A DNA stretch of 64,000 bases from Elusimicrobiota bacterium. Lineage in GTDB: Bacteria; Elusimicrobiota; Elusimicrobia; F11. A program made the position numbers and the translations under genes. The stretch is from positions 335,480 through 399,479 of the forward strand of contig JBGAON010000001.1 in assembly GCA_044221725.1 (NCBI GenBank). Reading direction: 5' to 3'. Under the pieces are notes generated by a model. It had not been told where the DNA came from, made no database searches, and saw only the letters and a list, made by a program, of their open reading frames with translations. This document shows positions 2,149 through 61,528 of the stretch, piece after piece; the stretch's first letter is position 1, and each line of letters starts with the position of its first letter.

Positions 2149-2208
2149 TTTTGTACATCGTCCATGGTCCATATCTATAGGCCATAGACTGTGCGCCGTA
2201 AGCGTATT

Positions 2209-2295
2209 GGAGAGGTGCCTGAGTGGTTGAAAGGGCTCGCCTCGAAAGCGTGTAGGGTCGTAAGACTCTCGTGGGTTCGAATCCCACCCTCTCCG
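2209..2295 (+). tRNA. tRNA-Ser(CGA)
   Basis: Acceptor GGAGAGG/CCTCTCC plus discriminator G, long D loop, anticodon loop CTCGAAA (anticodon CGA), long variable arm, T loop GGTTCGAATCC. 87 nt. Confidence 0.85.
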
Positions 2296-2362
2296 GGTCA
2301 GTCAAATGGTCTATGGTCCAGGACCTATCGTTTATGGACTCAACGACCCCGCGACTCTTACA

Positions 2363-3493
2363 ATGAAAAAAAATATCGCAGCGATCATATTGGTATTCGC
2401 GACATTTGCCGTTGCCCGCATTTCATCCGCTGAGACAGAGATCAACACGCTTCAGCTGCGGGTGGACCCCGCCTATTTCTCCCCCGACGGTGACGGACTC
2501 CAAGACCAAACGTTTTTTTATCCGGTATTGAAATCGCAAGCCGAAGGTTCGCGTTGGACACTTGATATATCGGAAGCAAAACGTCATCGGCGCATAGTGA
2601 GGCTGAGCGGCGCTCGATGCCCGGCGCTGATTAAGTGGAGTGGCAACGATAAAAAAGATCAGATCGTCCCCGATGGTGCCTACGTTGCCAAGTTGACGGT
2701 GAGCGGAAAAAGATCCGAAGTTGTCGCCGAACAGACAGTGGTTGTGGACCGAAAACCACCCCAAGTAACGCTTTCCCTTTCAACCGCCGTTTTTGACAAG
2801 AGTTTTTTAGCCAACGGAGCGATCGCAATGACGCCTCGCGTATTCGACGATTCGCCGGTGGAGCGGTGGATCGTTCAGGTGCTGGATCAAACCGGGCGAA
2901 CCGTAACCGTAATGTCGTCGAGCGGGCCGGTGCATGACGTTGCGTGGGATGGCACGGATCGCAACACGAGCGTGCTGGTTCCACAGGGACGCTATCGCGT
3001 GGCGTTTCAGGCGTGGGACAAGGCCGGTAATCAAAGTGCTCCGTACTTCGCCAATTTAACTGTTAATGTCAGCGCCCGCGAAATGCTCGAACACTCGCTG
3101 CACGAGATCCAAGTAAACGAGACGCCGATGGGACTGATTGTTCAGCTCGATTCAAAAAATTTGTTCGTTGCACGGAAAAATAAAATTGAGTTATCGGATC
3201 CTGGGAAGGATACGCTGCGCGAGGTGGCAATCTTGTTGAACGCTTATCCCGCGGCGACCGTGAAATTGGACGGATATTCGCATCAGAAGAAAACCGCTTC
3301 GCTTGACCAACAGCAAGCGAGCCTGTTTGCCTGGCGAATTTACAGTTACTTGAGCAAAGCCGGCAACGTAAAAGCGTCGCGTGTTACCGTTCGCGGCCGC
3401 GGTCGTTCGGCGATGTTCGATCGCCGATCGGTTTCGGTGCCGCTCACAAAAAATGGTGTCGAAGTGATTTTGGAAGGAAGCGGGCCGTGGTGA
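2363..3493 (+). CDS. OmpA-family peptidoglycan-associated protein with two FlgD-like Ig domains
   Basis: Start moved to ATG 2363 (MKKNIAAIILVFATFAVARISSA signal peptide); the 2306 start would abut the tRNA. Two FSPDGDG.../WDG...VPDGAY beta-sandwich repeats. C-terminal OmpA-like domain (ATVKLDGYSH...RVTVRGRG). Confidence 0.65.
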   Translation: MKKNIAAIILVFATFAVARISSAETEINTLQLRVDPAYFSPDGDGLQDQTFFYPVLKSQAEGSRWTLDISEAKRHRRIVRLSGARCPALIKWSGNDKKDQIVPDGAYVAKLTVSGKRSEVVAEQTVVVDRKPPQVTLSLSTAVFDKSFLANGAIAMTPRVFDDSPVERWIVQVLDQTGRTVTVMSSSGPVHDVAWDGTDRNTSVLVPQGRYRVAFQAWDKAGNQSAPYFANLTVNVSAREMLEHSLHEIQVNETPMGLIVQLDSKNLFVARKNKIELSDPGKDTLREVAILLNAYPAATVKLDGYSHQKKTASLDQQQASLFAWRIYSYLSKAGNVKASRVTVRGRGRSAMFDRRSVSVPLTKNGVEVILEGSGPW

Positions 3494-3539
3494 TTGTGCC
3501 GCTCTCCCGGCGTTCCGAAAAATCTTCTACCATTCCTTT

Positions 3540-4259
3540 ATGAAAATTATTACAGGAATGCATCGCTCGGGCACCTCCATGGTGGCCCGTTTGTTCCATG
3601 CGGTGGGTGCAAACCTTGGAAATGAGAAAACTTTTTACCGCCCTGATAAATGGAATCCGGATGGGTATTTTGAGCAGCCCGATATTCACGCTGTTAATTT
3701 TCCGCTAATCAACGGGCCATTCTGGAAATTCTCTTATCTTTTTCTGCCATCCGAAAAGACGATTTTAAGGCGAGCGCGGTCGATGTCGGACCGCATTCTC
3801 CAAACAGCAGAGAAGTATAAGAACGCGGTCATTAAAGAAACACGTTTTTGTTTAACGCTGCCGGCATGGAAAGAGGCGTCCGCTACCCCCGAAAAAATAC
3901 TGGTATGTCTGCGCGAGCCGATTCAAGTGGCTTCATCATTGAAAAAACGGAATTGGATTAGTCTTCGCATGGGACTCGATTTATGGAAAGTCCACAATGT
4001 TCGACTTTTAAAATATATCGAAAACATTCCACATCGATTTGTGAGTTATCACAACGTGCTCGATCCGGCGATGTTTTCTCGCGAAGTGAAGCCCGCATTG
4101 GCGTTTTTTGGAAATCCAATTTCCGATGACAAATTCGAAGCTTTAAGAAACGAACACGTTAAGCCCGGCATGAACAACAATTCTTTTGTTTCAGAACGAT
4201 ATCCAGCGGACATTCAGGCGTTATGGGACCATCTGCAGAAATTGCACAGCAAACAGTAA
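3540..4259 (+). CDS. sulfotransferase-family protein
   Basis: N-terminal PAPS-binding P-loop-like GMHRSGTSM, typical of bacterial sulfotransferases. Size about 240 aa. Confidence 0.5.
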   Translation: MKIITGMHRSGTSMVARLFHAVGANLGNEKTFYRPDKWNPDGYFEQPDIHAVNFPLINGPFWKFSYLFLPSEKTILRRARSMSDRILQTAEKYKNAVIKETRFCLTLPAWKEASATPEKILVCLREPIQVASSLKKRNWISLRMGLDLWKVHNVRLLKYIENIPHRFVSYHNVLDPAMFSREVKPALAFFGNPISDDKFEALRNEHVKPGMNNNSFVSERYPADIQALWDHLQKLHSKQ

Positions 4260-5242
4260 AAAGTTCGGACGCGACGAGGAGAAGTCCTCCTCCCGCCGTT
4301 GCGTCGGTGTGCGTGTTGATACCGGTGCTTAACGCGGAGGTATCGATCGGGCCTTTAATTGAGACGCTCGTTGCCCAATACGGCAAGGTGTATTCGCAAT
4401 TTGAAATTCTTTTGGTGAACGACGGCAGCACCGATGGCAGTCAGAAGATTATCGAGCAGAAAGTTCAGAAATTTCCTGGCCTGGTTAAAGGGGTCCGTCT
4501 CTCTAAAAACTTTGGCGAACATAATGCCGTGATGTGCGGGTTGAGTTTTGTGCGTGCCGACGCGGTTGTCATCATTGATGACGACTGGCAGAACCCGCCA
4601 TCCGAAATTAAATTGCTGGTGGATAAATTGTCCGAAGGTTACGATGTGGTTTACTGCACCTACGACCAGATTCGGCAGTCGTTATTCCGGCGCCTTGGAA
4701 GTGCGTTCGCCAATTTGGTCGCAACGCGGCTTCTGGGCAAGCCAAAGTCACTTTACTTGTCCAGTTTCAAGGCAATGAACTCTTTCCTGGTGCGTTCGGT
4801 TCTCACATACAAAGGTCCATTCCCTTATTTGGATGGAATCATTCTCAGTCAGACGCAATCCATTGGGCAACAGCGGGTGACACATCAACTGCGCTATGCC
4901 GGTCGATCGAATTATGATCTCTCACGATTGTTTCGCCTTTGGCTTAACATGTTTACTGGGTTTTCGATTCTTCCGTTGCGGGCGGCTTCGCTCCTCGGTT
5001 TCGCTGTGTCGGTGGGCGCGTTTTTCCTGTCCCTGTTTTTTATTTACACGCATTTTCATGGCCCGGTGCTTATCAATAATGCGATTCCACCGGGTTGGGC
5101 CTCTTTGATTGTGGCGGTCACATTTCTTGGTGGCATGCAGCTCTGTGTGTTGGGTTTGGTTGGTGAATATCTTGGACGTCTGTTCCTAACAATCAATCAA
5201 TTGCCTCAATATATTGTGAAAGAGACATTGGGTTTGAACTAA
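4223..5242 (+). CDS. GT2 polyprenyl-phosphate sugar synthase (GtrB/ArnC/DPM1-like) with C-terminal TM helices
   Basis: LIPVLNAE...LLVNDGSTDGS...IIDDDWQNPPSEI DxD region, followed by two C-terminal TM helices. True start may be an internal GTG because 4223 overlaps the upstream gene by 37 nt. Confidence 0.75.
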   Translation: MGPSAEIAQQTVKSSDATRRSPPPAVASVCVLIPVLNAEVSIGPLIETLVAQYGKVYSQFEILLVNDGSTDGSQKIIEQKVQKFPGLVKGVRLSKNFGEHNAVMCGLSFVRADAVVIIDDDWQNPPSEIKLLVDKLSEGYDVVYCTYDQIRQSLFRRLGSAFANLVATRLLGKPKSLYLSSFKAMNSFLVRSVLTYKGPFPYLDGIILSQTQSIGQQRVTHQLRYAGRSNYDLSRLFRLWLNMFTGFSILPLRAASLLGFAVSVGAFFLSLFFIYTHFHGPVLINNAIPPGWASLIVAVTFLGGMQLCVLGLVGEYLGRLFLTINQLPQYIVKETLGLN

Positions 5243-5243
5243 T

Positions 5244-6182
5244 TTGCTCGACCAACTTTCAACGTCGGTTCCTCCGGATTATTACGACCACAATGATTCC
5301 GTGCAGAATTGTTTTTTGTGTGGCGCCCCATCGTATCAGGTCTATCAGAAGTCTCACGATTTCGGACTGCCGTTGGTTTTTCAACAGTGTCGGTGCGGCC
5401 TTATAAAACAAACGCCGCTTCCCAACGAACGTTTTTTTAACTGGTTTTTCAACGCCCCGGTATTTTACAGTGCGGCCCACGCACGCAATGCGAGGATTTG
5501 GGGCTATCAGGATTACTTTGGCGACGAGCGTAGTCGCATGGCAACGGCTCGCCTTCGCTACAAAAAGTTGAGCGTCTATTTCCCGCGCCAATCGGGCCTT
5601 CGTATTTTGAAGATCGGCCCTGCCACCGGAACCTTTCTTAAAGTGGCCAATGATCATGGTCATCACGCGATTGGTTGCGATATTTCTTCAGAATTTGTTG
5701 CCTTTGCGCGCTCGCGTTACGATGTGCGAATTGATCACGGAAGATTTGAGAAGATGCGTTACGAGTCCGAGCAGTTCGATATTGTTGTGTTGTTCAATGT
5801 CATCGAGAATATTCCGAATCAGGACGAGATTTGGAGCGAAATACAGCGTGTTCTTAAACCCAATGGGATTTTTATGTTCAACTATGTTGATATGCAATCG
5901 AACATCATTGCGAAGCTGCAAGGCTCGCGTTATTTTCTATTCCGTCCGCCGGTTTGTTACGCGTTTTCAGCCTCTCTCATTGAGCGACTCCTCGGGCGGT
6001 TCGGTTTTGAGCCCATCGTGACAAAACGCGACACGCGATACATGACACTTGAAAAAATTCTCACGTTGCTTCGACTGAATTATCTCGCTCGGCTGTTTCA
6101 AAGAATAGGAATCGCGAAACTTCCATTCCCAATTTTTGCGTACCCTTCTCGCATTGTCGTCGCGCGAAAACACACAGCGTAA
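5244..6182 (+). CDS. class I SAM-dependent methyltransferase with N-terminal Cys-rich zinc-ribbon-like segment
   Basis: CFLCGAP...CRCG motif, then LKIGPATGTFL (motif I), VVLFNVIENIP, LKPNGIF. TTG start. Confidence 0.7.
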   Translation: MLDQLSTSVPPDYYDHNDSVQNCFLCGAPSYQVYQKSHDFGLPLVFQQCRCGLIKQTPLPNERFFNWFFNAPVFYSAAHARNARIWGYQDYFGDERSRMATARLRYKKLSVYFPRQSGLRILKIGPATGTFLKVANDHGHHAIGCDISSEFVAFARSRYDVRIDHGRFEKMRYESEQFDIVVLFNVIENIPNQDEIWSEIQRVLKPNGIFMFNYVDMQSNIIAKLQGSRYFLFRPPVCYAFSASLIERLLGRFGFEPIVTKRDTRYMTLEKILTLLRLNYLARLFQRIGIAKLPFPIFAYPSRIVVARKHTA

Positions 6183-8488
6183 TGGAAGAAAATCGTTTCT
6201 GGAACAATCGCAGCCTGTTTGCCATTTTGCTGATTGTTCACCCGTTTGTGACGTTGCTGATCCATCCGAACATTATTTACATCGGGTTGCAGCAGGATCC
6301 GGCCCAGGCTCTTGGCGCGATTCTAAACTTCGACTTTCTGCACAACGTGCTCATGAACGACCGGCGATTGGACCGTCTTCCCATGATTTTCTTGAGTTAT
6401 CCTTTCTACAAGGTCTTTCCGGCCATGGTGGCCCACCATCTTCTTTATTTCATTTCCTGCTTGGGTATTCTGACGTTGATGTTTTTCACCACGCGGCTCT
6501 TCGCCCCCGAGCCGAAGGCGATGCTCGCAACCCTTCTCTTCGCAACAAATTTCTGGATTTTGCCAACGTTTGGGGATGTCTATTTGAACCGGTACATGAT
6601 TCTTTTCTTCCTGGCGGGTTTTTATTTTGTCGTTAAAGCTGCTCGGGCGGAGAACCAAATAGCGCGGCCCATGATAAGCGGTTTCTTCGCCGCATGCGCC
6701 TTTTTTTCACACTTCGCGGCGTTGCCACTTCTTTTCGTCGGTCCGCTTTATTTTTTTGTTGAGAAGATCGCACAAAAGAAGTTTTCCATGCGGGAAACTC
6801 TTAATTTCGTTAATTATTTTGCGGACGGTTTCGTGGTTTGCTTCTTGTGTTTCGGGTTGTTCAACTATTTGTTTTTGAACGGGCGTTTCCTCTTCTTCAT
6901 TAATCAGTTTGCCATAAGCCAGGCTGATTACAGCGACCGTGCTTCGGGTTTTGCGGATGTGTTTCAACCGATTTCGAATTCTTTGTTGTTGATCACGTTT
7001 GTGGCGGCAATCGTAACGCTTCGTCAGCAGCGGGAGTCTTCTCGGCAAAGAATCGTCGCGTGGTGGTTTCTTTTTGCGGCGACGCTTTATTTGATGTTGT
7101 GTATCGCAAACGTCTGGTTGCTTCCAAAAAGTCCGATTTTTCCACGAATGTTGATTCGCGAGTTTTTCCGTTTGTGGCCAGTGCCTTTCGCGTTGCTAAC
7201 GCTTTATTGTTGTCTTATTCCTGAAGATTTCAGGTTAACGCCGGTCCGATTGCTGTCTCTTTATGCCGCGCTTATGATCTCGATTTCTCCCGCTTCTTCG
7301 GCGTTCGTTTCACTAACGAAATTGGCGCCGTTGCTGGCGAGAAATACACTAACAATCGCGTTGATTGGGTTTGTCATTGTTGGGTTCGATCGTTATCCCG
7401 GAAACCGAAAATGGATGGCTGGATGCGCATTTGGACTCGCGCTGCTTATGCGGTCTGTGTTGTTTGCCGCGTATCCGGTAAATGCCGCAAACGGGTACGC
7501 CGACCGTTCTTATTATTCCCGCCTGTACCGCGCAAATGCCCTGCTTCAAACTCCATCCGCCTCTCGAAATTTTTATTGGTTAAACAAGAAGCCGGAGGAC
7601 GTCACGCTGTGGGATGAATACAAGACCATTGGTATCTTCTGGCTCTGTGACTACAATCCGATGGTGTTGGGGGGAAATCCCTTCTTCGGGCCCGGCCCGG
7701 CAGGCGTGACCAATTATGTTGAAGAATCCATGAAAGAGAACAGTCGCATTATCCTCGTCGACGAAGATTTGGATGGCAACGCAATTGAACAGAAAAACCC
7801 CGCCTTATTTCCGTACGGTATGCGGCTCCGCGAAGAATCCCGCCAAAAGGTCAGCTCTGATGACAAGAAATACTATCTGATCCGATGCCGAGCGGATCCC
7901 TATTTGGATTTTGCTCATTGGGACAAATCGCTGTTAGCGGAGCACACCGGTCTTACGCACATTGCGAACGGAAATTTTAAAGAGGGCATGGCCGGCTGGG
8001 AGGGGGGCGATTCCAGCGCGTCGTGGCCCGGTAAGGCGCAGTACAAATTTGCGACCTCAAATTACACGTTGAGTCGCAATCCCGACGACCGGAGCTTGTT
8101 GATCGAAACATCGAATCATTTGATCAATATCAACACGCATGTAAAGAATCTGGAAGTGGGAAAGCTGTATTCTTTCTTGATCCGTTTCAAAATTGTTCGA
8201 ACCGATTTGCTAGGAAACAAGCCGCAATCTCTCAAGGCGGAGGATTCCAAAATCAGCGACCTTATTTATTTTTATGACAGCAAAGGCGCCATTCCGATGA
8301 TATCGCCGACGGGGAGTTCTGCCAAAGCCGAATGGCTCGAGGATGGTTTCGCATTTATCGCGCGGGAGGCCGAGTCCTCTTTGTGGATCTATTGTTCGTC
8401 GGATGGAACCTATAAGAATTCTTGTTTTATCGACGACGTCCAAGTAAAGCCGATTACCGCCAATTTGTCCGGTCCGTCCGAAAACTGA
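6182..8488 (+). CDS. polytopic membrane protein, candidate GT-C-fold (ArnT/PMT-like) glycosyltransferase with C-terminal CBM4_9-like domain
   Basis: About 13 predicted TM helices over the first ~540 aa, with an acidic first loop (NDRRLDRLP). C-terminal soluble ~230 aa beginning [14 protein letters not shown], resembling CBM4_9. Follows a GT2 Und-P-sugar synthase. Fold assignment is inference. Confidence 0.4.
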
Positions 8489-8515
8489 TAGAAACAATAC
8501 GTGCATGCAGATTTT

Positions 8516-8602
8516 GGAGAGGTGCGTGAGTGGTTGAAACGGCACGCCTGGAAAGTGTGTAGGGTCGCGAGATCCTCGCGGGTTCGAATCCCGCCCTCTC
8601 CG
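8516..8602 (+). tRNA. tRNA-Ser(GGA)
   Basis: Acceptor GGAGAGG/CCTCTCC plus G, anticodon loop CTGGAAA (anticodon GGA), long variable arm GGTCGCGAGATCCTCGCG, T loop GGTTCGAATCC. 87 nt. Confidence 0.85.
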
Positions 8603-8604
8603 TC

Positions 8605-9612
8605 CTACACTGCTGTTGGTTCCCGGGACAGTTCCGTTTTGGCTTTTTTCAGGAATTCGTGTTGGATCAGTGATTGATCCGTGTCCGTTGCAGTTCGAAG
8701 TAACACGGTCGCTAGAATCGGCTCTCTCCCCGTCGTAAATCGCACGATCGCGCGTTTGTCTGGGTTGGGAACCGAAAAACGCCGGAATACCTCAGTGGCG
8801 GCATTCAATAGCCTTTGTTCGGCTTGCGCCAAATCTGTTTTTCCATCGAACTGAAATTCCACCGGAATTTGCAGCTCCCCTTTTTCGCGAAACGAGACAA
8901 TGTACGATTGGGTGATAAACGAATTTGGAATTAGCACGATCTGCCCAGACAGAGTTTTCATTCGGCTCGAACGCCAACCCATATCCATGATGTATCCCTT
9001 GTGTGTGCCGTATCCGATGCCGCGTTCCAGTTCGAGATAGTCACCGATTTCCACCTGCCGTGAGGCGAGCAGATAAAATCCCGCAAACAAATTGCTGAGC
9101 GTGTCTTGCAGCGCGAGCCCGACGGCCAAAGAACCGACGCCAAGCGCCGTAAGGAAGGGACCGATCGCAATCCCAAAATTGGACAACAGAAGAAGCGCAC
9201 CGAAAACGTAGACCACCACTTGGACGAGGTTTTGAGAAAGACTTGCTGCCGGGAGCGGAAAATTGAGCCGGCTCGCGATGCGCGGAATAACTTCTTTCGC
9301 AATGTGCGCGGCCACCGCGGTCAGAAGCAAAATGACGAGTGCCGCACTCAGTCGATCGGCCAAAATCTCGGCGCGCAGCGAAAGCGGAAAAACGCGCAGG
9401 GAGAAAGCGACACCAGCGACAACACTCCAAATCATCACATGGGTTTTTAAAATTTCGAGGATCGAAGTTAAAAGCGATCGTGCCCGCTGACGCTGCGCTA
9501 GCCGCGTCAGCATTGCCTGCAAAAGAAGCCCGATAACAATGCTTCCCACAATAATGCCGAGAGATACAAAGATCGGTTCCGGATGTTCGTGAAGCGCTCT
9601 GAGATAGTTCAT
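8605..9612 (-). CDS. mscS: small-conductance mechanosensitive channel (MscS family)
   Basis: Three N-terminal TM helices, then MscS core (IGPFLTALGVGSLAVGLALQDTLSNLFAGFYLL...VEIGDYLEL...GYIMDMGWRSSRMKTLSGQIVLIPNS). Confidence 0.85.
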   Translation of the reverse strand: MNYLRALHEHPEPIFVSLGIIVGSIVIGLLLQAMLTRLAQRQRARSLLTSILEILKTHVMIWSVVAGVAFSLRVFPLSLRAEILADRLSAALVILLLTAVAAHIAKEVIPRIASRLNFPLPAASLSQNLVQVVVYVFGALLLLSNFGIAIGPFLTALGVGSLAVGLALQDTLSNLFAGFYLLASRQVEIGDYLELERGIGYGTHKGYIMDMGWRSSRMKTLSGQIVLIPNSFITQSYIVSFREKGELQIPVEFQFDGKTDLAQAEQRLLNAATEVFRRFSVPNPDKRAIVRFTTGREPILATVLLRTATDTDQSLIQHEFLKKAKTELSREPTAV

Positions 9613-9752
9613 GCTGAAGATACGAATGGACGCTGAAGAAAGTTGTGCGCGTAAGAAGTTGCGTTAATAGATTATAATCACGGCCCTTCCCCAAGACTTT
9701 GGGGGCTGTCCCGCTTGATTTTTTATGTAAGGATGGGGCTGCCCGGAACAAC

Positions 9753-9825
9753 GGGGCTGTAGCTCAGCTGGGAGAGCGCATCGTTCGCAACGATGAGGTC
9801 GTCGGTTCGATCCCGATCAGCTCCA
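9753..9825 (+). tRNA. tRNA-Ala(CGC)
   Basis: GGGGCTGTAGCTCAGCTGGGAGAGCGC 5' half with the G3:U70 Ala identity pair. Anticodon loop TTCGCAA (anticodon CGC). 73 nt, no encoded CCA. Confidence 0.85.
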
Positions 9826-9931
9826 CTTTTATTTCTAAATCATAGGCATCCACGCCCCGTGGTTAAAGACCGCTATTTAATCTCCACTATCTATCGAGTT
9901 TAACGCTTCTGCTGGTGTCTCAGAATAAATG

Positions 9932-9967
9932 AAAAGCCCCGCGGGTTGAACATCCGCGAGGCTTTTC
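9932..9967. terminator. bidirectional rho-independent terminator
   Basis: AAAA-GCCCCGCGG-(9 nt loop)-CCGCGAGGC-TTTT, 8/9 bp stem flanked by A and T tracts. Lies between tRNA-Ala (+) and the 3' end of the minus-strand gene 10042..10365. Confidence 0.6.
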
Positions 9968-10041
9968 GGTGTGAATTTTTGCTGAGACCGAATCAATGTC
10001 GCAAGTCGCGACTTGACCCCTTTTATGCTTTTATGAATCTC

Positions 10042-10365
10042 TTAAAGTCCCAAACTTTCGCACGCTTGAACTGTAACAATCATCTTGATTTGGTGGTCGT
10101 AAATGTCGAAAGGAACACCAAGATTGTCACTATCATAATTCCTTGCGTCCGCGATCTCTTGCTGGAGGAACACATCGCCGGATTTGATCGCATCGTTGAT
10201 TGTTTGAAGTTCTTGGCGGAATCGATCACAGTCCGCCGCTACAACGCCGATAATTATTCCGCCTCCTGCTGCTCCGTGAGGGGGGAGCACTTCGGCGCCA
10301 GCAAATGCATGGCTCGACATGCCTAAGCTTGCGCCAATAAGCATCAGTGTTAGGAACTTTTTCAT
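10042..10365 (-). CDS. small secreted hypothetical protein
   Basis: Start set at internal ATG 10365 (MKKFLTLMLIGASLGMSSHAFA signal peptide) with SD AAGGAGA 7 nt upstream. The 5' extension of the ORF-track model lacks an RBS. Confidence 0.55.
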   Translation of the reverse strand: MKKFLTLMLIGASLGMSSHAFAGAEVLPPHGAAGGGIIIGVVAADCDRFRQELQTINDAIKSGDVFLQQEIADARNYDSDNLGVPFDIYDHQIKMIVTVQACESLGL

Positions 10366-10434
10366 AAAACATCTCCTTGATTGTCCGTTAAAGACAAAAC
10401 GGATTTGATTTTTTGTTGCCTGTCTTGACGCATC

Positions 10435-12573
10435 TTGCAACGCTCCGGCCTGCGGTTTCTCGTTTTCCGTCTTGAAAATGAAGCGGTTTTCGGGCACGCT
10501 TGTTTGGTGCGGAGAGGTCGGAAAATCCCCATAAAAATCGCGTTGTTTTTGGTTTTCTTTGGATCCATTTCTGTGTGGGCCGAAGTAAAACTGCGAATTT
10601 ATTTGCAGGACGGTACTCTTCAGGCGGGAAATCTCGTTGCCGAAACAGAAAATTCGTTCGTGATCTTGAACAAAGAAGAACGGTTGGAAATTAAAAAAGA
10701 CAAGATCATGTTCATTAACGGGAAGACGCTAAAACAGTGGCAAGAGCGGCCCGATAAACTTTTTCAAACCGAAATTATTCCTTCCGATATTCCGAACCCT
10801 GCTTATGTGAATGACAAGGCGCCGAACCCTCCGCCGCCGTCGCCTGCAACGCAGGCCGCCGCAAAATCAGCACCGGTTCCGGCGACGGAAAAATCTGTTG
10901 TGCCCGCCACAGGTAAAGCGGCTTCAGCATCTGCCGCAGCAGCATCCGCCACCGCAACAACCGCCGCTCCGCAATCCGCGCCCGTAATTGCTCCGGTAAA
11001 ACCGTTATCCGAGGTCGCCGCCGCGAAGGCCACTCCAACACCAGCACCAACACCCGTGGCAGCGAACCCCACACCGGCACCAACGCCGGCCGCGGCAAAA
11101 CGAACCCCGGCGCCAACCCCAGCGCCCGTCGTTAAGAGTGAAGAGCCCAAGGCTGCGCCCGTGGCAAAAAAAGAAGAACCAAAAGTTGAACCCGTGGTTG
11201 CTGCAGCGCCCGCTGCTCCTGTGGAAAAGCGTCGCAAGAAAAATCGGCACCATCGTTCGGATAAAACCGACGTGGCCGCAGTGCCGCCTGCAAAACCAGC
11301 GCCAGAAAAATCGCTCCCGGTTCCACCCGATCCAACGACGATCCCCACGGAAACAGCAAGTCTTTCTGCGGTTGCCGGGATCGCTCGTCCGTCAGGTTTT
11401 CAGCGGAAGGAGATGGGGGATTATCACTTCGCGCGCGCAGTCGCCTACGAAAAAGCCGGCGCGCGCGGGCAAGCGATTCAAGAACTCCACATTTCCACGT
11501 TGCTCGATCGACAAAATCCTGATTCCGTGTATATGCTCGGGAAACTTTATTTTGATGAAGGGCAGAAAGACCGCGCGGAGAAATATTTCAACCATCCGCT
11601 TGTGAAGAAGCGGCCGGAAATCGAGACGTTTACGAAGCAACTGGAGCAAGCGGAGAAAAAGCAGGAACAAAACAAAAATATTCTCTATGGACTGACGGCC
11701 GTTGGCGCTCTCGCTTGGATTCCCCTGTTGCTGATTGTGCGTCGGTTCCGGAAAAAGACAAAGCGAGTGATCACAGCAGAGTCAATTGAAGTTACGAAGA
11801 ACATCATTGAAGACGTTATAGAGGAAGTGGCTGAAAAAGGTCCGGCGTTTAAACCGCAAATGCCATCACCGGTTCCGCCGCGCACGGCGCCACCGGTCGC
11901 CCCAGTGCTTCCTGAAAATTCCTTCGCCGGAAAGCCGGAGCCGGTCGTTCAGCAAAAACCGGTAACGCCTGCTGTTCCGCCCGCCCCTGTCGTGTCGCCG
12001 GTGCCCCTGTTGCCACCCGCTCCCGTAACGCCACCGGCGCCGATCGTGACCGGAATTCCAGCGCCAATTTCGTTGCCGCCAGCGGTGCCTCCCATTGTTC
12101 CTCCTATTATTACGCCACCCGTGGGAGCGCCCGAGCCAGCCCCCGAACCGGTGGCTGTGCCCGCGTTTTTCAAGAAAGTGGAAGGCCTCGATACCGAATC
12201 GGTGCTTCGACTTGCGAGCATGGTGGACCGCGCCGTCCGGAAAGGCAATGCCTACGCGATCGACAATCAGTACGATCTCGCACGTCGCGAGTATCGAACC
12301 GCGTTGGCACTGAACCCAGCATGCCTCGAAGCGTATCTGGGATTGGGATACTTATGTTTCACTCAGGGCCAATGGGATTTGGCGCTTGAGCACTATTCGA
12401 AAGCGATTGCGATTGATTCGAACTCGGCCGATGCGCATTACGGAATCGGTCGCGTTATGTTAGAAACGGAACACGTTGACGAGGCGGTTTATGAGTTTCA
12501 AAAAACGCTCGCCTTGGACACCATGTTTGACGACGCTCGGGAGACCCTAACCTCCCTCGGCGTCGTCGTTTAG
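10435..12573 (+). CDS. Pro/Ala-rich single-pass membrane protein with C-terminal TPR repeats
   Basis: Long low-complexity APTPAPTP region, one TM helice (LYGLTAVGALAWIPLLLIV), a second Pro-rich segment, and C-terminal TPR units (LNPACLEAYLGLGYLCFTQGQWDLALEHYSKAIAIDSNSADAHYGIG). Start uncertain; TTG 10435 or GTG 10507 preceding an RRGRKIPIKIALFLVFFGSISVWA signal-like segment. Confidence 0.55.
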   Translation: MQRSGLRFLVFRLENEAVFGHACLVRRGRKIPIKIALFLVFFGSISVWAEVKLRIYLQDGTLQAGNLVAETENSFVILNKEERLEIKKDKIMFINGKTLKQWQERPDKLFQTEIIPSDIPNPAYVNDKAPNPPPPSPATQAAAKSAPVPATEKSVVPATGKAASASAAAASATATTAAPQSAPVIAPVKPLSEVAAAKATPTPAPTPVAANPTPAPTPAAAKRTPAPTPAPVVKSEEPKAAPVAKKEEPKVEPVVAAAPAAPVEKRRKKNRHHRSDKTDVAAVPPAKPAPEKSLPVPPDPTTIPTETASLSAVAGIARPSGFQRKEMGDYHFARAVAYEKAGARGQAIQELHISTLLDRQNPDSVYMLGKLYFDEGQKDRAEKYFNHPLVKKRPEIETFTKQLEQAEKKQEQNKNILYGLTAVGALAWIPLLLIVRRFRKKTKRVITAESIEVTKNIIEDVIEEVAEKGPAFKPQMPSPVPPRTAPPVAPVLPENSFAGKPEPVVQQKPVTPAVPPAPVVSPVPLLPPAPVTPPAPIVTGIPAPISLPPAVPPIVPPIITPPVGAPEPAPEPVAVPAFFKKVEGLDTESVLRLASMVDRAVRKGNAYAIDNQYDLARREYRTALALNPACLEAYLGLGYLCFTQGQWDLALEHYSKAIAIDSNSADAHYGIGRVMLETEHVDEAVYEFQKTLALDTMFDDARETLTSLGVVV
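10795..11335 (+). repeat. low-complexity Ala/Pro/Thr codon repeat region (coding)
   Basis: Imperfect tandem reiteration of ccaacaccagcaccaaca / ccggcaccaacgccggc units encoding (A)PTPAPTP. It produces spurious antisense ORFs 10775..11348. Confidence 0.6.
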
Positions 12574-12739
12574 CGCACCAAAAATTCGGTTTTTCCGTCG
12601 AATTGACACTTCCCACCGCTTTTTGTTAGCTTCCGGCCCAACAATTTCCTCCCCTCGTGGTCCAACGACGGACCCATCATCAACACATCAAAGGTGAAAG
12701 TTTTGCATCAGGGGTAACAATCAAGGAGACGTACTTCTT

Positions 12740-14581
12740 ATGGCTACAAAAGATCGCGCCGTTGTCTGGATAGGTGGAGCTGCAGGTGAAGGTATTGCTT
12801 CCACCGGAGATATTTTCTGTAAGACCGCTTCCCGCATGGGTTTGTGGGTATTCGCCTACAATAGTTATCAGTCGGTAATTCGTGGCGGCCACGTCTATTA
12901 CCAGGTTCAAATTGGTGGTGGAGACAAAGTTCTCTCGCAAGGCGACGAACCCGATGTGCTCGTAGCGCTGAACCAAGACACGATTGATCGGCACGCAGGA
13001 AAGGTTCTTGAAGGCGGCGCCATTATCTTTAATAAGGACAAGATCAAAGTTGAAGGCCTCAAAATCCGCAAGAACGTTCAAATTATCGCCATCCCCGTAG
13101 AAGAACTCACCAAAGAATTCGGTCGCAACCCTGTCATGCAAAACACCGTCGACTCCGGCGCGCTCGCGTATGTGTTGGGAATGGATTGGGCCACTTACGA
13201 AGGGGCGATCAAATCCATTTTCGGTTCGAAGAAAAGCGAAATTGCCGACCAGAACATCAAAGTGGCGCTCAAAGGCGCGGAATTCGCGAAAGCCAACTTC
13301 AAACCTCTCGATATTAAACTCAAAGGCGATAGCAAAAAGCGCGCCATTGCTACTGGCAACGCGATGATCGCGTTCGGCGCATTGACCGGCGGTTGCAAAT
13401 TCTACAGCGCGTACCCAATGACGCCAGCGTCGTCGATCATGCATTGGCTCGCGCCGCGCGGTGCCAAGTACGGACTTGTTATGAAACAAATGGAAGACGA
13501 AATTGCTGCAATGGCTTCCACGGTTGGCGCTGGCCATGTCGGCTGCCGTTCAATGACCGGAACTTCGGGCGGCGGGTTCGCTTTGATGACCGAAGCCATT
13601 GGTCTTGCAGCAATGACCGAAACACCGTGTGTTGTTGCGCATGTCATGCGTGGTGGCCCGTCCACCGGTCTTCCGACCAAAACCGAACAAGCCGACCTCT
13701 TCCAAGATATCGGCGCTGGTCAAGGCGATTATCCGAAAGCCATTATCGCTCCCATTACCGTTGATGATTGCTATCACGCGACCATTGAAGCGTTGAACCT
13801 CTCCGAAAAATATCAAACCCCTGTCATTATCGCCTCCGACCTTTTCCTTTCCGAACACGCCGAAACCATTGACGACGGACTTGTTAACCCGAACATCAAA
13901 ATTGAACGCGGCGAAATTGTGACCTCGTGGAAAGCGTCGGACCCGTCGAAAACAGACAAAGATGCCTGGTACGTTGAGAAAAACGCGGACGACTATTTGC
14001 GCTTCAAAGACACGCCGAGCGGTGTTTCGCCGCGCGCGTTGCCGGGCACGGAGAATACGCTCTTCGTTGCGGCGTCGGACGAACATGATGAAGAAGGGAT
14101 CGTTATCTCGGACGTGTTCACGGACGAAAAGATCCGCATCAAAATGATGAACAAGCGCATGCGCAAAATGATCGGTATTGAGAAAGACACGAAAGGCCCG
14201 ATCGTGACCGGCGCAAAGAACGCGGACGTGACGCTGGTGGGTTGGGGCTCCACGTTCCAGATCATCGAAGAAGTGCGCCTCGCGCTCGAGAAGAAAGGCA
14301 AATCCGTTAACCACATCCACTTCCGCACCGTGTGGCCAATTCATGCTGATGAAACCTCGAAGTTGCTCAATGCGGCCAAGAAAACCATCAACATCGAAGT
14401 GAATTTTACGAGCCAGATGGCAAAGATCATTCGCATGGAAACGGGTTATCAAATGCACCATTTCATCAATAAATATGACGGTGAGCCTTACACGTTGGAA
14501 GGGCTCTTGAAAGAAGTTGAGAATTGCATGAGCAGCAAAGCCACCAACAACAAAGTGGCCGAGCTTGCCGGCACAAGGTAA
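12740..14581 (+). CDS. 2-oxoacid:ferredoxin oxidoreductase alpha subunit (fused gamma+alpha domains)
   Basis: N-terminal gamma/catalytic domain (VVWIGGAAGEGIASTGDIFCKTASRMGLWVFAYNSYQSVIRGGHVYYQVQI), then alpha domain (IATGNAMIAFGALTGGCKFYSAYPMTPASSI). 613 aa matches two-subunit OFOR alpha. SD AAGGAG 9 nt upstream. Confidence 0.85.
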   Translation: MATKDRAVVWIGGAAGEGIASTGDIFCKTASRMGLWVFAYNSYQSVIRGGHVYYQVQIGGGDKVLSQGDEPDVLVALNQDTIDRHAGKVLEGGAIIFNKDKIKVEGLKIRKNVQIIAIPVEELTKEFGRNPVMQNTVDSGALAYVLGMDWATYEGAIKSIFGSKKSEIADQNIKVALKGAEFAKANFKPLDIKLKGDSKKRAIATGNAMIAFGALTGGCKFYSAYPMTPASSIMHWLAPRGAKYGLVMKQMEDEIAAMASTVGAGHVGCRSMTGTSGGGFALMTEAIGLAAMTETPCVVAHVMRGGPSTGLPTKTEQADLFQDIGAGQGDYPKAIIAPITVDDCYHATIEALNLSEKYQTPVIIASDLFLSEHAETIDDGLVNPNIKIERGEIVTSWKASDPSKTDKDAWYVEKNADDYLRFKDTPSGVSPRALPGTENTLFVAASDEHDEEGIVISDVFTDEKIRIKMMNKRMRKMIGIEKDTKGPIVTGAKNADVTLVGWGSTFQIIEEVRLALEKKGKSVNHIHFRTVWPIHADETSKLLNAAKKTINIEVNFTSQMAKIIRMETGYQMHHFINKYDGEPYTLEGLLKEVENCMSSKATNNKVAELAGTR

Positions 14582-14592
14582 GGAGAATTTCT

Positions 14593-15480
14593 ATGACCGA
14601 AGCGACAGCAACAGCAACAACGCCTCTCGCGGAATTCCGCTCGAAAGTGGCACCCGACTGGTGCCCAGGTTGCGGCGACTATGGCGTGCTCAGCGCACTG
14701 CAGAAAGCGGCATCCAATTGCAACATTCAGCCGAAAGATTTGATGGTTGTATCCGGGATCGGATGCTCGTCGAACTTGCCGGGATTCATTCGCTCCTACG
14801 GTTTCCATAGTCTTCATGGCCGCGGAGTCGCGGTGGCAACCGGAATGAAACTTGGAAATCCGGATCTCAACGTTGTCGCGACGGGCGGCGACGGTGACGG
14901 TTTCGGCATCGGCGTCGGACACTTCATCCACGCGATGCGCCGCAACGTGAACATCACCTACATCGTGATGAACAACCAAATCTATGGTTTGACCACGGGG
15001 CAAGCATCGCCGACCACGTCGCGCATGCACAAAACGAAATCCACACCAAACGGGAACCTTGAGTTTCCGTTCAACCCAGAAGGCGTCGCGCTTATGGCCG
15101 GTGCCTCGTTCGTGTCGCGCGGTTTCTCGGGTGACGGTGCGGGTCTCGCAAAAATTATGGAACGCGCCATCAAACACAAAGGTTTTTCGCTCGTTGTCGT
15201 GATGAGCCCGTGCGTAACGTACAACAAATTGAACACGTACTCCTGGTTCCGTGACAAGGTGTATAAACTCGAAGATGAAGGTCACGATGTGAACAACTTC
15301 GAATTGGCGCTGAAAAAATCGATGGAATGGGAAAATCGTATTCCGCTCGGCGTGTTTTACGAAACCGACAAGCCGGTCTACGAAGAATCCGAACCGGCGT
15401 ACGAATTCGGCGCACCATCCAAACAAAAACTCGGACTCAAATCCGAAGACTGGAACGTCCTCTACGACAGCTTCCGGTAA
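14593..15480 (+). CDS. 2-oxoacid:ferredoxin oxidoreductase beta subunit (TPP-binding)
   Basis: Start set at ATG 14593, 12 nt after the alpha stop, with SD AAGGAGAA. CPGCGDYG Cys motif and TPP-binding GDGDGFGIG...NNQIYGLTTGQ. Confidence 0.85.
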   Translation: MTEATATATTPLAEFRSKVAPDWCPGCGDYGVLSALQKAASNCNIQPKDLMVVSGIGCSSNLPGFIRSYGFHSLHGRGVAVATGMKLGNPDLNVVATGGDGDGFGIGVGHFIHAMRRNVNITYIVMNNQIYGLTTGQASPTTSRMHKTKSTPNGNLEFPFNPEGVALMAGASFVSRGFSGDGAGLAKIMERAIKHKGFSLVVVMSPCVTYNKLNTYSWFRDKVYKLEDEGHDVNNFELALKKSMEWENRIPLGVFYETDKPVYEESEPAYEFGAPSKQKLGLKSEDWNVLYDSFR

Positions 15481-18300: not shown

Positions 18301-21300
18301 TTGGCTATGAGACCACCCCTTCTCAAGGCCGTTGCCACGCCTCTCTCTGTTGTTGTTCTCGCCACAAATTGCCTGTTCGCGCACTCCGTCGAAGTAAATT
18401 TTTGGACCGAAAGGCGCACCACCTCGCCAACGTCGATTTCTGCACGTGGAGGTGAAATCCCCGCAAGACCTGGCCTCTGGGGGATTTCTCAATTTGGCAC
18501 CGTCCGTAAGATCTTAAAACCAAGAGGCGTTTCGAAAGGAACGGTTCTGCACATCCAAGACATTCATCGAAATCGCGAAGCACAAACGGCTATTTCCAAA
18601 GCCGTTCAACAATTAATTAACAGCGACTCCATTGATCTCATCGCACTGGAGGGCGCTTTCGGCCCCATCGACCTTTCGTTGTTTCGAAAATTTCCCTCTA
18701 GAAATTCGGTGAAGATTGTTGCCGATTATTTGTTCCGCGAAAATCAAATCGCGGGCGCCATTTTTGCTGCCATCACGAGTGACCGCGGAGGGCCCGCGCT
18801 AATCGGTGTCGACGCGCCCTCCCCTTACGCAGCGAACGTGAATGCGTACAAGCAAGCAAAGCCTTTTGTTCGATCGCGAAAAGAAGAAATTGAGCGGTCC
18901 GCGGAGAAAATTGCGGTCGACAAGAAGCGTCTGTTTAACTCGAAACTGTCGACATTCGATGCGGATGTTCAGCGCTTTCGCAGCGGCGAATTATCGTGGG
19001 GCTACTACGTTCGGCATTTGTGCGCGTACTCCGGCGCCATCCCCGACGACGTTCAAGGTTTTTTGTCGGCGCTCAACATGGAATCTCAGATTGATTATGC
19101 GGGCATGGAATCGGAACGGACCGCGCTCTTAAACAAACTCGTCGGTCATCTCACCGACAAGCAAAAGGCGGAATTGCTGAACGCGAGCGCCGCCTATCGG
19201 GCGGGGCAGCTCGGCCATTCTGATTTTTATCTTTATCTAAAACGACTGTCTGTTAAGCGTGGGATTTCGTTGGCAGCGTACCCGGTCTTTAACCGTTACG
19301 TTCGTTACGCACGGCTGGCTGACAGCGTCGATGCCGAAAAGGTTCTCGAAGAAACGACCGCCATGGAAAAAGCGATTTATTCCCGGCTGGCGGTTACCGA
19401 TGCGGAGAAACGGCTCGTTCAAAAATCGCGCGAGCTTTATTTGATCCGCAAACTTGTGGAATTTGCGCTGACGAAAAGGGAGTGGGAGGAACTAAAGCTG
19501 TCGCCCTGGAACGCCTTAATCCAGGGCCCACTTTCTTCCGCGAAAATGACGGATCTGCAGCCTTTCGCAGAATTTTACAAGCAAGCCGAGCTTCGCGATG
19601 AAGCAATGGCCAGCAATTTTTTAAATTGTCTCCGATGTACGAAGCACCCCGTACGAAGTGCCTTTGTCCTGATTACGGGTGGCTTCCACTCCACAGGCAT
19701 TGACCAACGACTTGTTGATGCGGGTTACACGATCGTTGCCTTTGTTCCGAAAATTTCGAAGGTCGAATCCTCGGGTGGCACAAGTTATCTGACGGTATTC
19801 GCCCAAGAAAAAACGCCGCTCGAAAAATTGTTTGCGGGCGAAAAGCTTTTTGTGAGTCCTCCCGTGGTTCCGAAAAATCTTTTTCCCGCAAAGATAATGC
19901 TGGATCAGCATGTGTCTTTGTTGCGAACAAAGTGGGAAGGCAACGACGAGCGAACCGTGACCACGCGGGCCCGCGGCTTTGGTTTGACCACCACCTTCGC
20001 ACGGAACAAAATTGTTTCCTCGAGAATCGTCTTGGCAAATGAGCCTGTGCCGGCCGGCACCGCGACCGGCCATGCGTTTGGAAATGCGGGCCGGTGGTAC
20101 GGTCTCCGCGGCTTCTTGCTGGGGGGCTTTGTGAACGCGTTGTTTGCCTTCTTTGTGATGTATCCGTACGGGGATTTTTCAAACGTGTACGTGCGGGGGG
20201 GAATCGCCGCGGTGGCTCTTTTCGGCGGTGTTTATGGCGTCGTTGGTTTTCGGTCAATCTTTAATACCTACGGGAACGAACTTGTCGGTTACCATCTAAT
20301 GGCGCGCACCCGAAAGATTGCGGTGGAAAAAGCAGCGCGCTTGGGTTTGTCACGACCGGAAAACGTTCTCTATATTCCGCTGCTCAAAACGCATATTTGG
20401 CTCAACCGAAAGTTTGATCGCAGTCGTGGAATTCAGCGTTGGATTGCGAATCCCATGATTCTTTCCCATGAGATATTCCCGTATCACACCTTCGGCATGA
20501 TCGGCATGGTCTTCCTGCCCCTCACATTGTTGGTTCAAGCGATCTGGGTATGGAACAACGAATGGGTCACACATCCGCTCGAGCGGCAGAAACTTCTTGA
20601 TCAAGAAATTCGGCATTTCGTGCGCATGACCGGAATCGCTGACGGAGATGCGAACGCCTTGATTCGCGATCTTCGCAAACGAACCATTGTGGTTCAGAGC
20701 CGAGGGGAAGCGTTTTGGCGAATGTTGGTATCAAACACCATTTTTTTTGTTCCGCTCGTCGGTGCGCTCACGACGGTACTAATTTTTTATCAACAACCGA
20801 TCGAGATGGTGGTGTTCCCGGCTATGTTCGGAGCTCTAATGATTATCGTTTTATCGGCTTCCTCTGCGTTCGGAGAATTTCTTGGTGTTGCATTGCCGTT
20901 TTTGAACCTCATCTTGATTATGGATGAACAGATGCACAGCGATCACCTTCGTGGAGAAGTTATTTTTCACGAGTTGACGCACCATGTTTTCCCCGATTGG
21001 CGTACCGGCCGGGAATCGGTCGCGTATGCGGCTTCCTATATGGAAACGCTTCGGCGTGTGGAGCGGGGATACTCCGAGCAGACCGATACCGAGCTTGAGC
21101 GGATTCGTCGCGATATAAGTTCCGCGCCGCTGGACCAGTTGGTCAAGCGATACAAAAAAAAGGCCATTTTTACGGTCGCCCAAGATTCGCTCCGTGGCGA
21201 TCATTTTGTTGAAGATACGATTGAACCTCGGTTCAGTTATCCCTTTGGAAAGGAACTCGCCTACGTAGCGCTTGAATTGTTAAAGAATGACCCTCACAAA

Positions 21301-61391: not shown

Positions 61392-61528
61392 TTCCCTTGA
61401 GGGTATCCCCAAGAGTCTTCGTTTTCGAGTCGGTTGCCCGTCGAAAACGAGCCGAAAAGACTAAGTGTTGCTTTGCTCGGTCTTTGATAGCATTATCGCG
61501 GTCCAAAAAAACAAGATAGGGAGGATGT

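Follow-up and report, generated by a model that had tools for sequence, protein, structure and literature searches.

What would four closely packed genes make if two of them appear to encode a lipid-sugar synthase and a periplasmic glycosyltransferase, and the other two a sulfotransferase and a methyltransferase? Decoration of periplasmic glycans by a family 2 glycosyltransferase (GT2), a flippase, and a glycosyltransferase of the GT-C fold drives surface antigen diversity and antibiotic resistance, for example to polymyxin via the Arn pathway. The question is raised by a locus in an Elusimicrobiota bacterium (NCBI GenBank assembly GCA_044221725.1), within a stretch of 64,000 nucleotides of contig JBGAON010000001.1 (positions 335,480 to 399,479 of the forward strand), hereafter the window. 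All gene coordinates of the module are positions within this 64-kb window; handles of the form P01xx denote protein relatives, and those of the form L0xx genomic loci. With moderate confidence, we read the four genes as a compact module that moves horizontally and decorates glycans outside the cytoplasm, following the logic of ArnC/ArnT and GtrB/GtrC. The sulfotransferase and GT2 genes at its core, together with the methyltransferase gene in part of the loci, are a conserved cassette across phyla.

The four-gene module and its products

3540..4259, + strand: open reading frame (ORF) 1, sulfotransferase-superfamily protein, predicted cytoplasmic, 239 aa
4223..5242, + strand: ORF2, ArnC/GtrB-type GT2 polyprenyl-phosphate glycosyltransferase, 339 aa
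5244..6182, + strand: ORF3, class I S-adenosylmethionine (SAM) methyltransferase, predicted cytoplasmic, N-terminal Cys4 zinc ribbon, 312 aa, TTG start
6182..8488, + strand: ORF4, predicted GT-C-fold protein, entire, 768 aa

The original prediction for this DNA described four genes on the same strand, and the ORF coordinates bear this out: four + strand ORFs spanning 3540-8488 were confirmed exactly at their called positions. It had also given every junction as 0-1 nt, which holds for two of the three. The ORF2 stop ends at 5242 and the TTG start of ORF3 lies at 5244, leaving a gap of 1 nt, and ORF3 overlaps ORF4 by 1 nt (TAATG, 6180-6184); ORF1 and ORF2, however, overlap by 37 nt (ATG at 4223, stop at 4259). 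Of the motifs quoted in that prediction, GMHRSGTSM occupies residues 6-14 of ORF1, and NGNFKEG..GW is found near residue 593 of ORF4. An identical four-gene locus was assembled independently from SRR28480390. This assembly, coupled with the adjacency of sulfotransferase and GT2 genes in roughly twelve independent loci drawn from several phyla, leads us to conclude that the arrangement is not due to chance. The start of ORF3 is called shorter in the Logan assembly (293 aa), and we favor the longer TTG start because six orthologues are conserved from about residue 9, including C23xxC26...C49xC51.

The cofactor-binding motifs of ORF1 map as follows.

3555-3578, + strand: ORF1 5'-phosphosulfate loop G6-M-H-R-S-G-T-S13, nearly invariant in 35 homologues
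3912-3938, + strand: ORF1 3'-phosphate motif R125-x-P127-x5-S133, invariant in 35 homologues

ORF1 has neither a transmembrane (TM) helix nor a signal peptide and is therefore predicted to be cytoplasmic. Conservation was assessed over 35 homologues of about 50% identity, in which Y170, within the adenine-stacking tyrosine motif 'YxxLL...FFG', is also invariant; the conserved K99, E100, and R102 are candidate catalytic residues. When the family profile was compared with the PDB, every top match, though weak, was a cytosolic sulfotransferase, and the C-terminal segment ('YE(D/N)L...FLG'-type) aligned to residues 167-242 of SULT1B1. Most of the 35 family members matched Pfam models below threshold (Sulfotransfer_3 in 24, Sulfotransfer_1 in 18, and Stf0 in 11), but nine of ten more distant relatives, taken at blastp E-values of 1e-22 to 1e-33, passed the Sulfotransfer_3 gathering score over the full profile (29.6-62.3 bits). 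The invariant binding motifs, the sub-threshold family and PDB matches, and the distant relatives that pass Sulfotransfer_3 together place ORF1, as judged from sequence, among the divergent members of the sulfotransferase superfamily that use 3'-phosphoadenosine 5'-phosphosulfate (PAPS), in agreement with the earlier sulfotransferase call. The family is large: the protein collection contains at least 311 members, of which the best 120 are 47-58% identical to ORF1, and GTDB species genomes contain at least 529 homologues.

More distant homologues of ORF1 (27-38% identity) occur as domains within ORFs of 1000-2000 aa (L029 9899-14530, L042 9935-15874, L058 9965-13753, L077 1328-5947, and others), two of which carry a GT2 domain in the same ORF. 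These giant ORFs look like a different, polymer-synthase-type use of the domain.

ORF2 matches Pfam Glycos_transf_2 (PF00535) over residues 30-157 with 94.5 bits, against a cut-off of 23.3, and carries the signature of its class.

4577-4600, + strand: ORF2 DxDxQxPP signature D119-D-D-W-Q-N-P-P126, aligning with D-A-D-L-Q-N-P-P of E. coli ArnC

Two hydrophobic helices, at residues 256-274 and 295-313, form the C-terminal TM pair that had been noted earlier as the mark of a polyprenyl-phosphate sugar synthase, and the similarity extends over the full length of the protein. Over 320 aa, ORF2 and E. coli ArnC share 32% identity; residues 26-335 align to residues 7-313 of the ArnC structure 9bhc (E 8.5e-44), and the alignment to the GtrB protein sll0501 (5ekp; E 2e-36) includes the TM pair. 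The NCBIfam ArnC model (NF007986) covers ORF2 from model position 5 to 312 of 316. The score of 167.9 bits lies far below the equivalog cut-off of 529 bits, which argues for a paralogous subfamily rather than an ArnC orthologue. We take ORF2 to be, by these alignments, a full-length ArnC/GtrB-type polyprenyl-phosphate glycosyltransferase.

ORF3 matches the Pfam models Methyltransf_23, 11, 31, 25, and 12 with 52-70 bits (E 1e-13 to 1e-19), and the glycine-rich motif I, 'KIGPATGTFL', is kept in its orthologues. The N-terminal cysteine-rich knuckle of the original prediction corresponds to a putative Cys4 zinc ribbon (C23, C26, C49, and C51) conserved in six orthologues of 48-53% identity, so that the predicted class I SAM-dependent methyltransferase stands in both its parts. 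The sole informative structural neighbor in the PDB is TcaB9, a Zn-ribbon sugar C-methyltransferase, to which the link is weak.

ORF4 is the least conventional of the four products, and its predicted parts are as follows.

6182..7552, + strand: ORF4 membrane domain, residues 1-457, predicted GT-C-type fold of about 13 helices (AlphaFold and Foldseek)
6296-6298, + strand: ORF4 candidate catalytic Asp39, in the first predicted extracytoplasmic loop after TM1 (alignment of relatives)
7559..7906, + strand: ORF4 α/β domain, residues ~460-575, predicted periplasmic (AlphaFold secondary structure)
7955..8461, + strand: ORF4 C-terminal β-sandwich, residues ~592-760, from NGNFKEG..GW, predicted periplasmic, resembling carbohydrate-binding modules (CBMs) of families 4, 22, and 61 (Foldseek)

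The hydropathy profile of ORF4 has at least 10 Kyte-Doolittle peaks. A single-sequence AlphaFold model was unusable (pLDDT 38.8); the model built from a 32-sequence alignment (m47f19468b7b6) reached a pLDDT of 83.1 and a pTM of 0.77 and places about 13 long helices within residues 1-455. Foldseek matched the membrane part of this model in the PDB to AglB, STT3, ArnT (TM-score 0.50-0.52 on target), AftD, ALG9, AftA, and Pmt1/2, all GT-C matches having a probability of 1.00. The relatives of ORF4 point the same way: PMT_2 is matched by 10 of 32 and GT87 by one, and P0127 (E 1.3e-22 to ORF4) scores 27.2 bits against PMT_2, above the gathering threshold of 26.1. Alignment of the family with E. coli ArnT by hhalign gave a probability of 71% and an E-value of 3.8e-5. 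ORF4 itself had no direct match above threshold to PMT, ArnT, or GT83/GT39, the models that the original prediction had named for comparison, nor to GT87, YfhO, or GtrII, and its family profile returned nothing meaningful among PDB sequences. The GT-C-like reading of the 768-aa protein is nevertheless sustained by its fold matches and its GT-C relatives, and the membrane domain is, on the model, a GT-C fold outside all curated GT-C families. A transporter identity was considered and rejected, there being no match to a transporter family and only GT-C fold matches for the membrane domain.

The GT-C family of ORF4 is very rare: HMMER, run exhaustively against 1.84 billion cluster representatives, yielded only 33 relatives, five of them close (P0122, 39% identical over the full length, P0123, P0124, P0126, and P0127), the remainder matching the membrane domain only; a scan of GTDB species genomes with the ORF4 clade found no relative. 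Asp39 aligns with the Asp of a 'D-P/S-W' motif in most of 30 relatives, its equivalent in P0122 being found upstream of a mis-called start, and is followed by the invariant D60-R-R-L-x-R-L-P67. It is a candidate catalytic residue, like the loop-1 Asp of other GT-C enzymes. Where the neighborhoods of relatives bear on function, the gene for P0127 follows immediately on that of a GtrB-type GT2, in a neighborhood that also encodes a GtrA flippase, a short-chain dehydrogenase/reductase (SDR), and a DegT aminotransferase, and P0122 is located in a glycan-synthesis locus.

The two predicted extracytoplasmic domains have different distributions. The α/β domain is conserved solely in the close clade (P0122, P0123, and P0126). 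The β-sandwich (residues ~576-707) recurs in two to four tandem copies in the otherwise unrelated P0125 and P0128, which suggests an independently mobile module. The short Foldseek alignments of about 180-240 columns, which were attributed to this domain, match CBM4-2 structures (1k42, 2y6k, and 2y6j; TM-score 0.52-0.61 on target), CBM22 (4xuo), CBM61 (2xom), an alginate CBM (8zqf), a phage tailspike, and Cry domain III, with E-values of 1e-4 to 1e-2 in all and of 1e-3 to 1e-2 for the CBMs. The CBM4_9-like tail of the original prediction is thus supported at the level of the fold, as a CBM4/22-like β-sandwich, but not by sequence, as the tail matched no CBM model in Pfam. Nor is a CBM on a GT-C enzyme as unusual as had been supposed: CBMs occur on GT136 ORF12, EmbA, EmbB, EmbC, and AftD, and those of GT136 ORF12, EmbC, and AftD bind the acceptor (PMC11127046). 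One member of the 32-sequence alignment, possibly P0125, has a GDSL-lipase domain.

The cassette in other genomes

Loci of the close ORF1 subfamily come from metagenome-assembled genomes (MAGs) of Gemmatimonadota, Acidobacteriota, Planctomycetota, Chloroflexota, Clostridia, and Actinomycetes and from metagenome contigs. Almost all of those that offer sufficient sequence have a GT2 50-60% identical to ORF2 directly after the sulfotransferase gene (L002-L006, L009, L011, L013-L015, L018, and L093), and in L016 an ORF2-type GT2 belongs to the same operon. The closest association is seen in a Gemmatimonadales MAG (L017, 4341-6146), where the sulfotransferase and an ArnC-like GT2 form one continuous ORF of 602 aa, in which some 15 residues link the two parts that align (1-239 and 254-588). 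Seven of the cassette loci also have an orthologue of ORF3 (48-53% identity), with an SDR and a DegT aminotransferase as frequent companions. The unit of sulfotransferase and GT2, with or without methyltransferase, is a cassette conserved in six phyla or more.

The membrane partner, GT-C-type or flippase-like, differs between these loci.

PMT_2-type protein: L009, L014, L093
Two GtrII-type proteins and a small EamA/SMR pair: L016
YfhO-like protein: L006
DUF6798: L004
LPG_synthase_TM: L002, L006, L011, L015

These varied partners and the rarity of the ORF4 family suggest that the window holds a portable donor cassette joined to a rare GT-C protein.

The fullest Arn-like version of the cassette is L016, from a Chloroflexia MAG (2751-14905). 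Its genes encode, in order, a GtrII-type GT-C, a GT2, an SDR, a DegT aminotransferase, a methyltransferase, two small TM proteins, the sulfotransferase, a 562-aa membrane protein, and a second GtrII-type GT-C. One of the two small TM proteins matches EamA/SMR and would be ArnE/F-like.

Genomic setting

2208..2296, + strand: tRNA-Ser(CGA), left-hand reference point for the variable segment, lying outside the machinery (ARAGORN)
2306-3493, + strand: OmpA-family protein with an FlgD-Ig domain, 46 nt upstream of the module
8515..8605, + strand: tRNA-Ser(GGA), 27 nt 3' of the module, right boundary at which synteny with the sister genome resumes (ARAGORN)

The two tRNA-Ser genes are direct repeats, 88% identical, that bracket a 6.2-kb segment containing the OmpA-like gene and the module. 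KorA of the window is 85-89% identical to proteins from Elusimicrobiota MAGs, which places the host among the uncultured Elusimicrobiota. A sister genome (L089) retains tRNA-Ser(GGA), tRNA-Ala(CGC), a TPR gene, korAB, and mdh, and has an integrase fragment and DUF1016/YhcG upstream of tRNA-Ser(GGA) in place of the module. The GC contents of the four module genes (0.447-0.490) are the lowest in the window, which averages 0.524 ± 0.012; that of the OmpA-like gene is native-like (0.532). Beyond the mutually similar tRNA-Ser genes, no att-like direct repeats flank the module, and the window has no integrase. Homologues of the SDR, DegT, YfhO, DUF6798, and GtrII proteins were absent from the window, as was any other glycan gene. 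The low GC, the absence of the module from the sister genome at a variable spot flanked by tRNA genes, and the lack of another glycan gene in the window suggest that the module is probably a self-contained islet acquired horizontally.

Several neighbors were characterized in passing. The N-terminal portion of the Leptospira adhesin Lsa66 shows weak similarity to the OmpA-like protein; considered as an acceptor for the module, the OmpA-like protein was rejected, having no feature in favor of this role, no Ser/Thr-rich linker, and native GC. An MscS-type mechanosensitive channel gene (8605-9612, - strand) lies between tRNA-Ser(GGA) and tRNA-Ala(CGC), which are only about 210 nt apart in L089, so that this gene would be variable too. 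A 1925-aa ORF at 18301-24078 (+ strand) has about 14 hydrophobic segments and, as its sole Pfam match, a 2-hydroxyacid dehydrogenase domain at residues 1077-1405; at the syntenic position, sister genomes have other giant ORFs, one of 4451 aa with a protein-kinase domain in L089 and one of 2059 aa with no Pfam match in L091. Farther along, 53165-61412 holds three more ORFs: the first encodes 1325 aa and includes a CBM30 domain, and the two that come after it, of 726 aa (+ strand) and 698 aa (- strand), have no Pfam match.

A proposed pathway and its rivals

The overlapping or abutting reading frames, together with the recurrence of an orthologous GT2 beside the sulfotransferase, speak for a functional link between the genes of the module. 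In the pathway we propose, ORF2, anchored in the membrane, would move one sugar from a nucleotide sugar onto polyprenyl (undecaprenyl) phosphate at the cytoplasmic face, a step that is well supported at the level of sequence. ORF1, using PAPS, and ORF3, using SAM, would modify that sugar in the cytoplasm, most likely while it is lipid-linked; we infer sulfation and methylation at this stage because PAPS and SAM are found only in the cytoplasm and because the sulfotransferase gene adjoins that of the GT2, the two being in one genome a single polypeptide. The lipid-linked sugar would presumably then be flipped across the membrane. In the last step, which is supported by the predicted fold and by context, ORF4 would act as a GT-C transferase on the periplasmic face and, by means of Asp39 in the first loop on that side, hand the sugar to an acceptor in the envelope. 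The α/β domain and the CBM-like β-sandwich would probably bind the acceptor; a polysaccharide is the likeliest candidate, for example the O-chain or core of lipopolysaccharide, or an exopolysaccharide. The trio of ORF1, ORF2, and ORF3 would make the donor as a portable cassette, and the GT-C transferase combined with it would vary from lineage to lineage.

Several observations weigh against this reading. ORF1 matches no Pfam or NCBIfam sulfotransferase model above threshold, scoring 14.2 bits (E 0.053) against Sulfotransfer_3, where the gathering threshold is 27. No match to ORF4 was found among Pfam, NCBIfam, or PDB sequences, even at E-values up to 10, and its Foldseek matches have modest E-values (3e-5 to 1e-2) and TM-scores of 0.3-0.5. 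The GtrA-like flippase that the original prediction proposed to look for elsewhere was not found in the 64-kb window, nor was ArnE/F, LPG_synthase_TM, or any other flippase candidate; in the window, no ORF of 200 aa or fewer has three or more hydrophobic segments and tblastn with the LPG_synthase_TM and EamA-like partners of related loci returned nothing. No gene for PAPS synthesis was seen among the window ORFs scanned, which were not every ORF. The fusion of sulfotransferase and GT2 is a single MAG case and could be an assembly or frameshift artefact. Finally, the conservation of the trio does not extend to its GT-C partner, which leaves the operon structure as the only argument for co-function at this locus.

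The rival that survives best keeps the same GT2-to-GT-C glycosylation and has ORF1 and ORF3 act on the nucleotide sugar, ahead of the GT2, or on another cytoplasmic intermediate of an acceptor polymer. We consider it unlikely. In its favor, TcaB9, whose substrates are nucleotide sugars, combines a zinc ribbon with class I architecture as ORF3 does and is weakly similar to it; many cassette loci contain nucleotide-sugar enzymes of the SDR and DegT types as well; and the Arn pathway itself adds a transient formyl group at the stage of the uridine diphosphate (UDP)-sugar. Sulfated nucleotide sugars are, however, uncommon as glycosyl donors, the position of the sulfotransferase gene beside that of a membrane GT2, to which it is once fused, places the enzyme at the membrane, and the locus in the window has no nucleotide-sugar enzymes.

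Glycosylation of a protein by a PMT-like O-glycosylation pathway, with the OmpA/FlgD-Ig protein (2306-3493) as the candidate acceptor, appears improbable to us. PMT_2 is indeed the curated family nearest to the ORF4 relatives, but it includes ArnT-like lipid and glycan transferases, and the CBM-like tail suggests a carbohydrate acceptor. The OmpA-like gene does precede the module by 46 nt and is read in the same direction; its GC content of 0.532, compared with 0.447-0.490 for the module, indicates that the two were probably not acquired together, and its product, as noted, has no Ser/Thr-rich linker.

We give little credence to the idea that ORF1 is an inactive, degenerate, or repurposed P-loop protein, such as a regulator or scaffold of the GT2, with a product that is methylated only or not modified at all. 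The 5'-phosphosulfate-binding loop, the Arg and Ser of the 3'-phosphate-binding motif, and the adenine-stacking Tyr are near-invariant in 35 homologues, which is the pattern of a working PAPS site, and relatives of ORF1 pass the Pfam thresholds. To be set against this are the 14 bits of ORF1 itself at a threshold of 27, the fact that no catalytic base can be assigned in it, and the lack of PAPS-synthesis genes among the window ORFs scanned.

That the four are neighbors with no common pathway, or that the GT2 product is a final membrane glycolipid and ORF4 an unrelated polymerase, ligase, or transporter, is very improbable: the ORF4 family does not co-occur with the trio outside this genome and several cassette loci have the flippase-like LPG_synthase_TM as their only such partner, but the ORF3 stop and ORF4 start codons overlap, all four genes share the same atypical GC, the membrane domain of ORF4 is matched by GT-C enzymes only, and relatives of ORF4 adjoin a GtrB-type GT2 and GtrA.

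The reading as a lipid-linked glycan-decoration module finds parallels in several known systems. The Arn pathway (ArnB, ArnA, ArnC, ArnD, ArnE-F, and ArnT), which places 4-amino-4-deoxy-L-arabinose on lipid A, resembles it in having a GT2 to which ORF2 aligns over its full length, followed by a GT-C-fold enzyme, ArnT being among the best fold matches of ORF4. In both, the sugar is modified in the cytoplasm before flipping, which for the module is our proposal, and the cassette locus L016 has a DegT aminotransferase like ArnB, an SDR like the C-terminal domain of ArnA, and an EamA/SMR pair like ArnE/F. Unlike the Arn operon, the window has no formyltransferase, deformylase, aminotransferase, or flippase, and the module has a sulfotransferase and a methyltransferase; ORF2 is not an ArnC orthologue, and ORF4 has a CBM-like tail and no detectable membership of the ArnT family by sequence.

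In the GtrA/GtrB/GtrC systems of Shigella and Salmonella phages and in CsbB/GtcA/YfhO of Firmicutes, a GtrB-type GT2 with a TM pair is likewise combined with a GT-C that varies between lineages, so that a portable donor part serves a swappable transferase. The module is similarly mobile and near a tRNA gene, and P0127, a relative of ORF4, is found beside GtrA and a GtrB-type GT2. In contrast with these systems, neither the module nor the window has a gene for a GtrA-type flippase, the module has two additional cytoplasmic modifying enzymes, and ORF4 belongs to no described Gtr, YfhO, or PMT family. Ppm1/PMT O-mannosylation in Actinobacteria and eukaryotes also couples a GT2 polyprenyl-phosphate-sugar synthase to a PMT-type GT-C, and PMT_2 is nearest to the ORF4 relatives; ORF4, however, has neither a PMT or PMT_2 match nor a MIR domain, and its CBM-like tail points to a glycan acceptor.

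Closer to ORF4 in architecture is the GT136 system for the pentofuranose side chains of Citrobacter youngae (Kelly et al. 2024), in which a lipid-linked monosaccharide donor is used by a GT-C that founded a new family; the catalytic Asp of that enzyme lies near TM1, and its C-terminal CBM binds the acceptor polysaccharide (PMC11127046). ORF4 shares the Asp near TM1 and the CBM-like C-terminal domain. The GT136 donor synthase is, by contrast, a polyprenyl-phosphoribose synthase dependent on phosphoribosyl pyrophosphate, its flippase is a MATE protein, the system includes no sulfation or methylation, and no sequence relationship to the window proteins was seen. For cytoplasmic modification of the donor, the functional precedent is archaeal. 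In Halobacterium salinarum, a dolichol-phosphate-linked glycan is sulfated and transiently methylated in the cytoplasm before translocation and is then transferred by AglB, a GT-C enzyme (PMC4335974, PMC11980604). That glycan is an N-linked tetrasaccharide on archaeal protein, whereas the module would act on a lipid-linked monosaccharide in a diderm bacterium, and VNG1057C, one of the two H. salinarum sulfotransferases, structurally resembles a sulfatase and not the ORF1 family.

The general scheme, then, is already known from the Arn, Gtr/CsbB-GtcA-YfhO, and GT136 three-component systems. New are the conserved partnership of a sulfotransferase (and a methyltransferase) with an ArnC-like GT2, a GT-C family, that of ORF4, outside all curated families, and a module to which no flippase is linked. 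Full-text searches of the literature returned no description of a sulfotransferase paired with ArnC or GtrB and no described bacterial GT2/flippase/GT-C system that includes a sulfotransferase. A bolder version of our reading, which we hold as tentative and as possible rather than probable, is that the trio is a widespread, undescribed unit that would make a sulfated (and O-methylated) undecaprenyl-phosphate monosaccharide for interchangeable GT-C enzymes, ORF4 being a new GT-C family that would accept such a charged donor. The sugar would then cross the membrane already sulfated, and the unit would be a general bacterial solution to supplying envelope glycans with sulfate despite the confinement of PAPS to the cytoplasm.

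If the sulfotransferase-GT2 pair does sulfate a lipid-linked sugar, it would represent a new route to sulfated bacterial envelope glycans and would provide a portable enzymatic toolkit for the glycoengineering of sulfated sugars. ORF4, for its part, would represent a GT-C family not yet classified and equipped with an acceptor-binding module. As the uncultured phyla that carry the cassette are numerous (Elusimicrobiota, Planctomycetota, Acidobacteriota, Gemmatimonadota, Chloroflexota, and others), its recognition could annotate hundreds of 'hypothetical' proteins.

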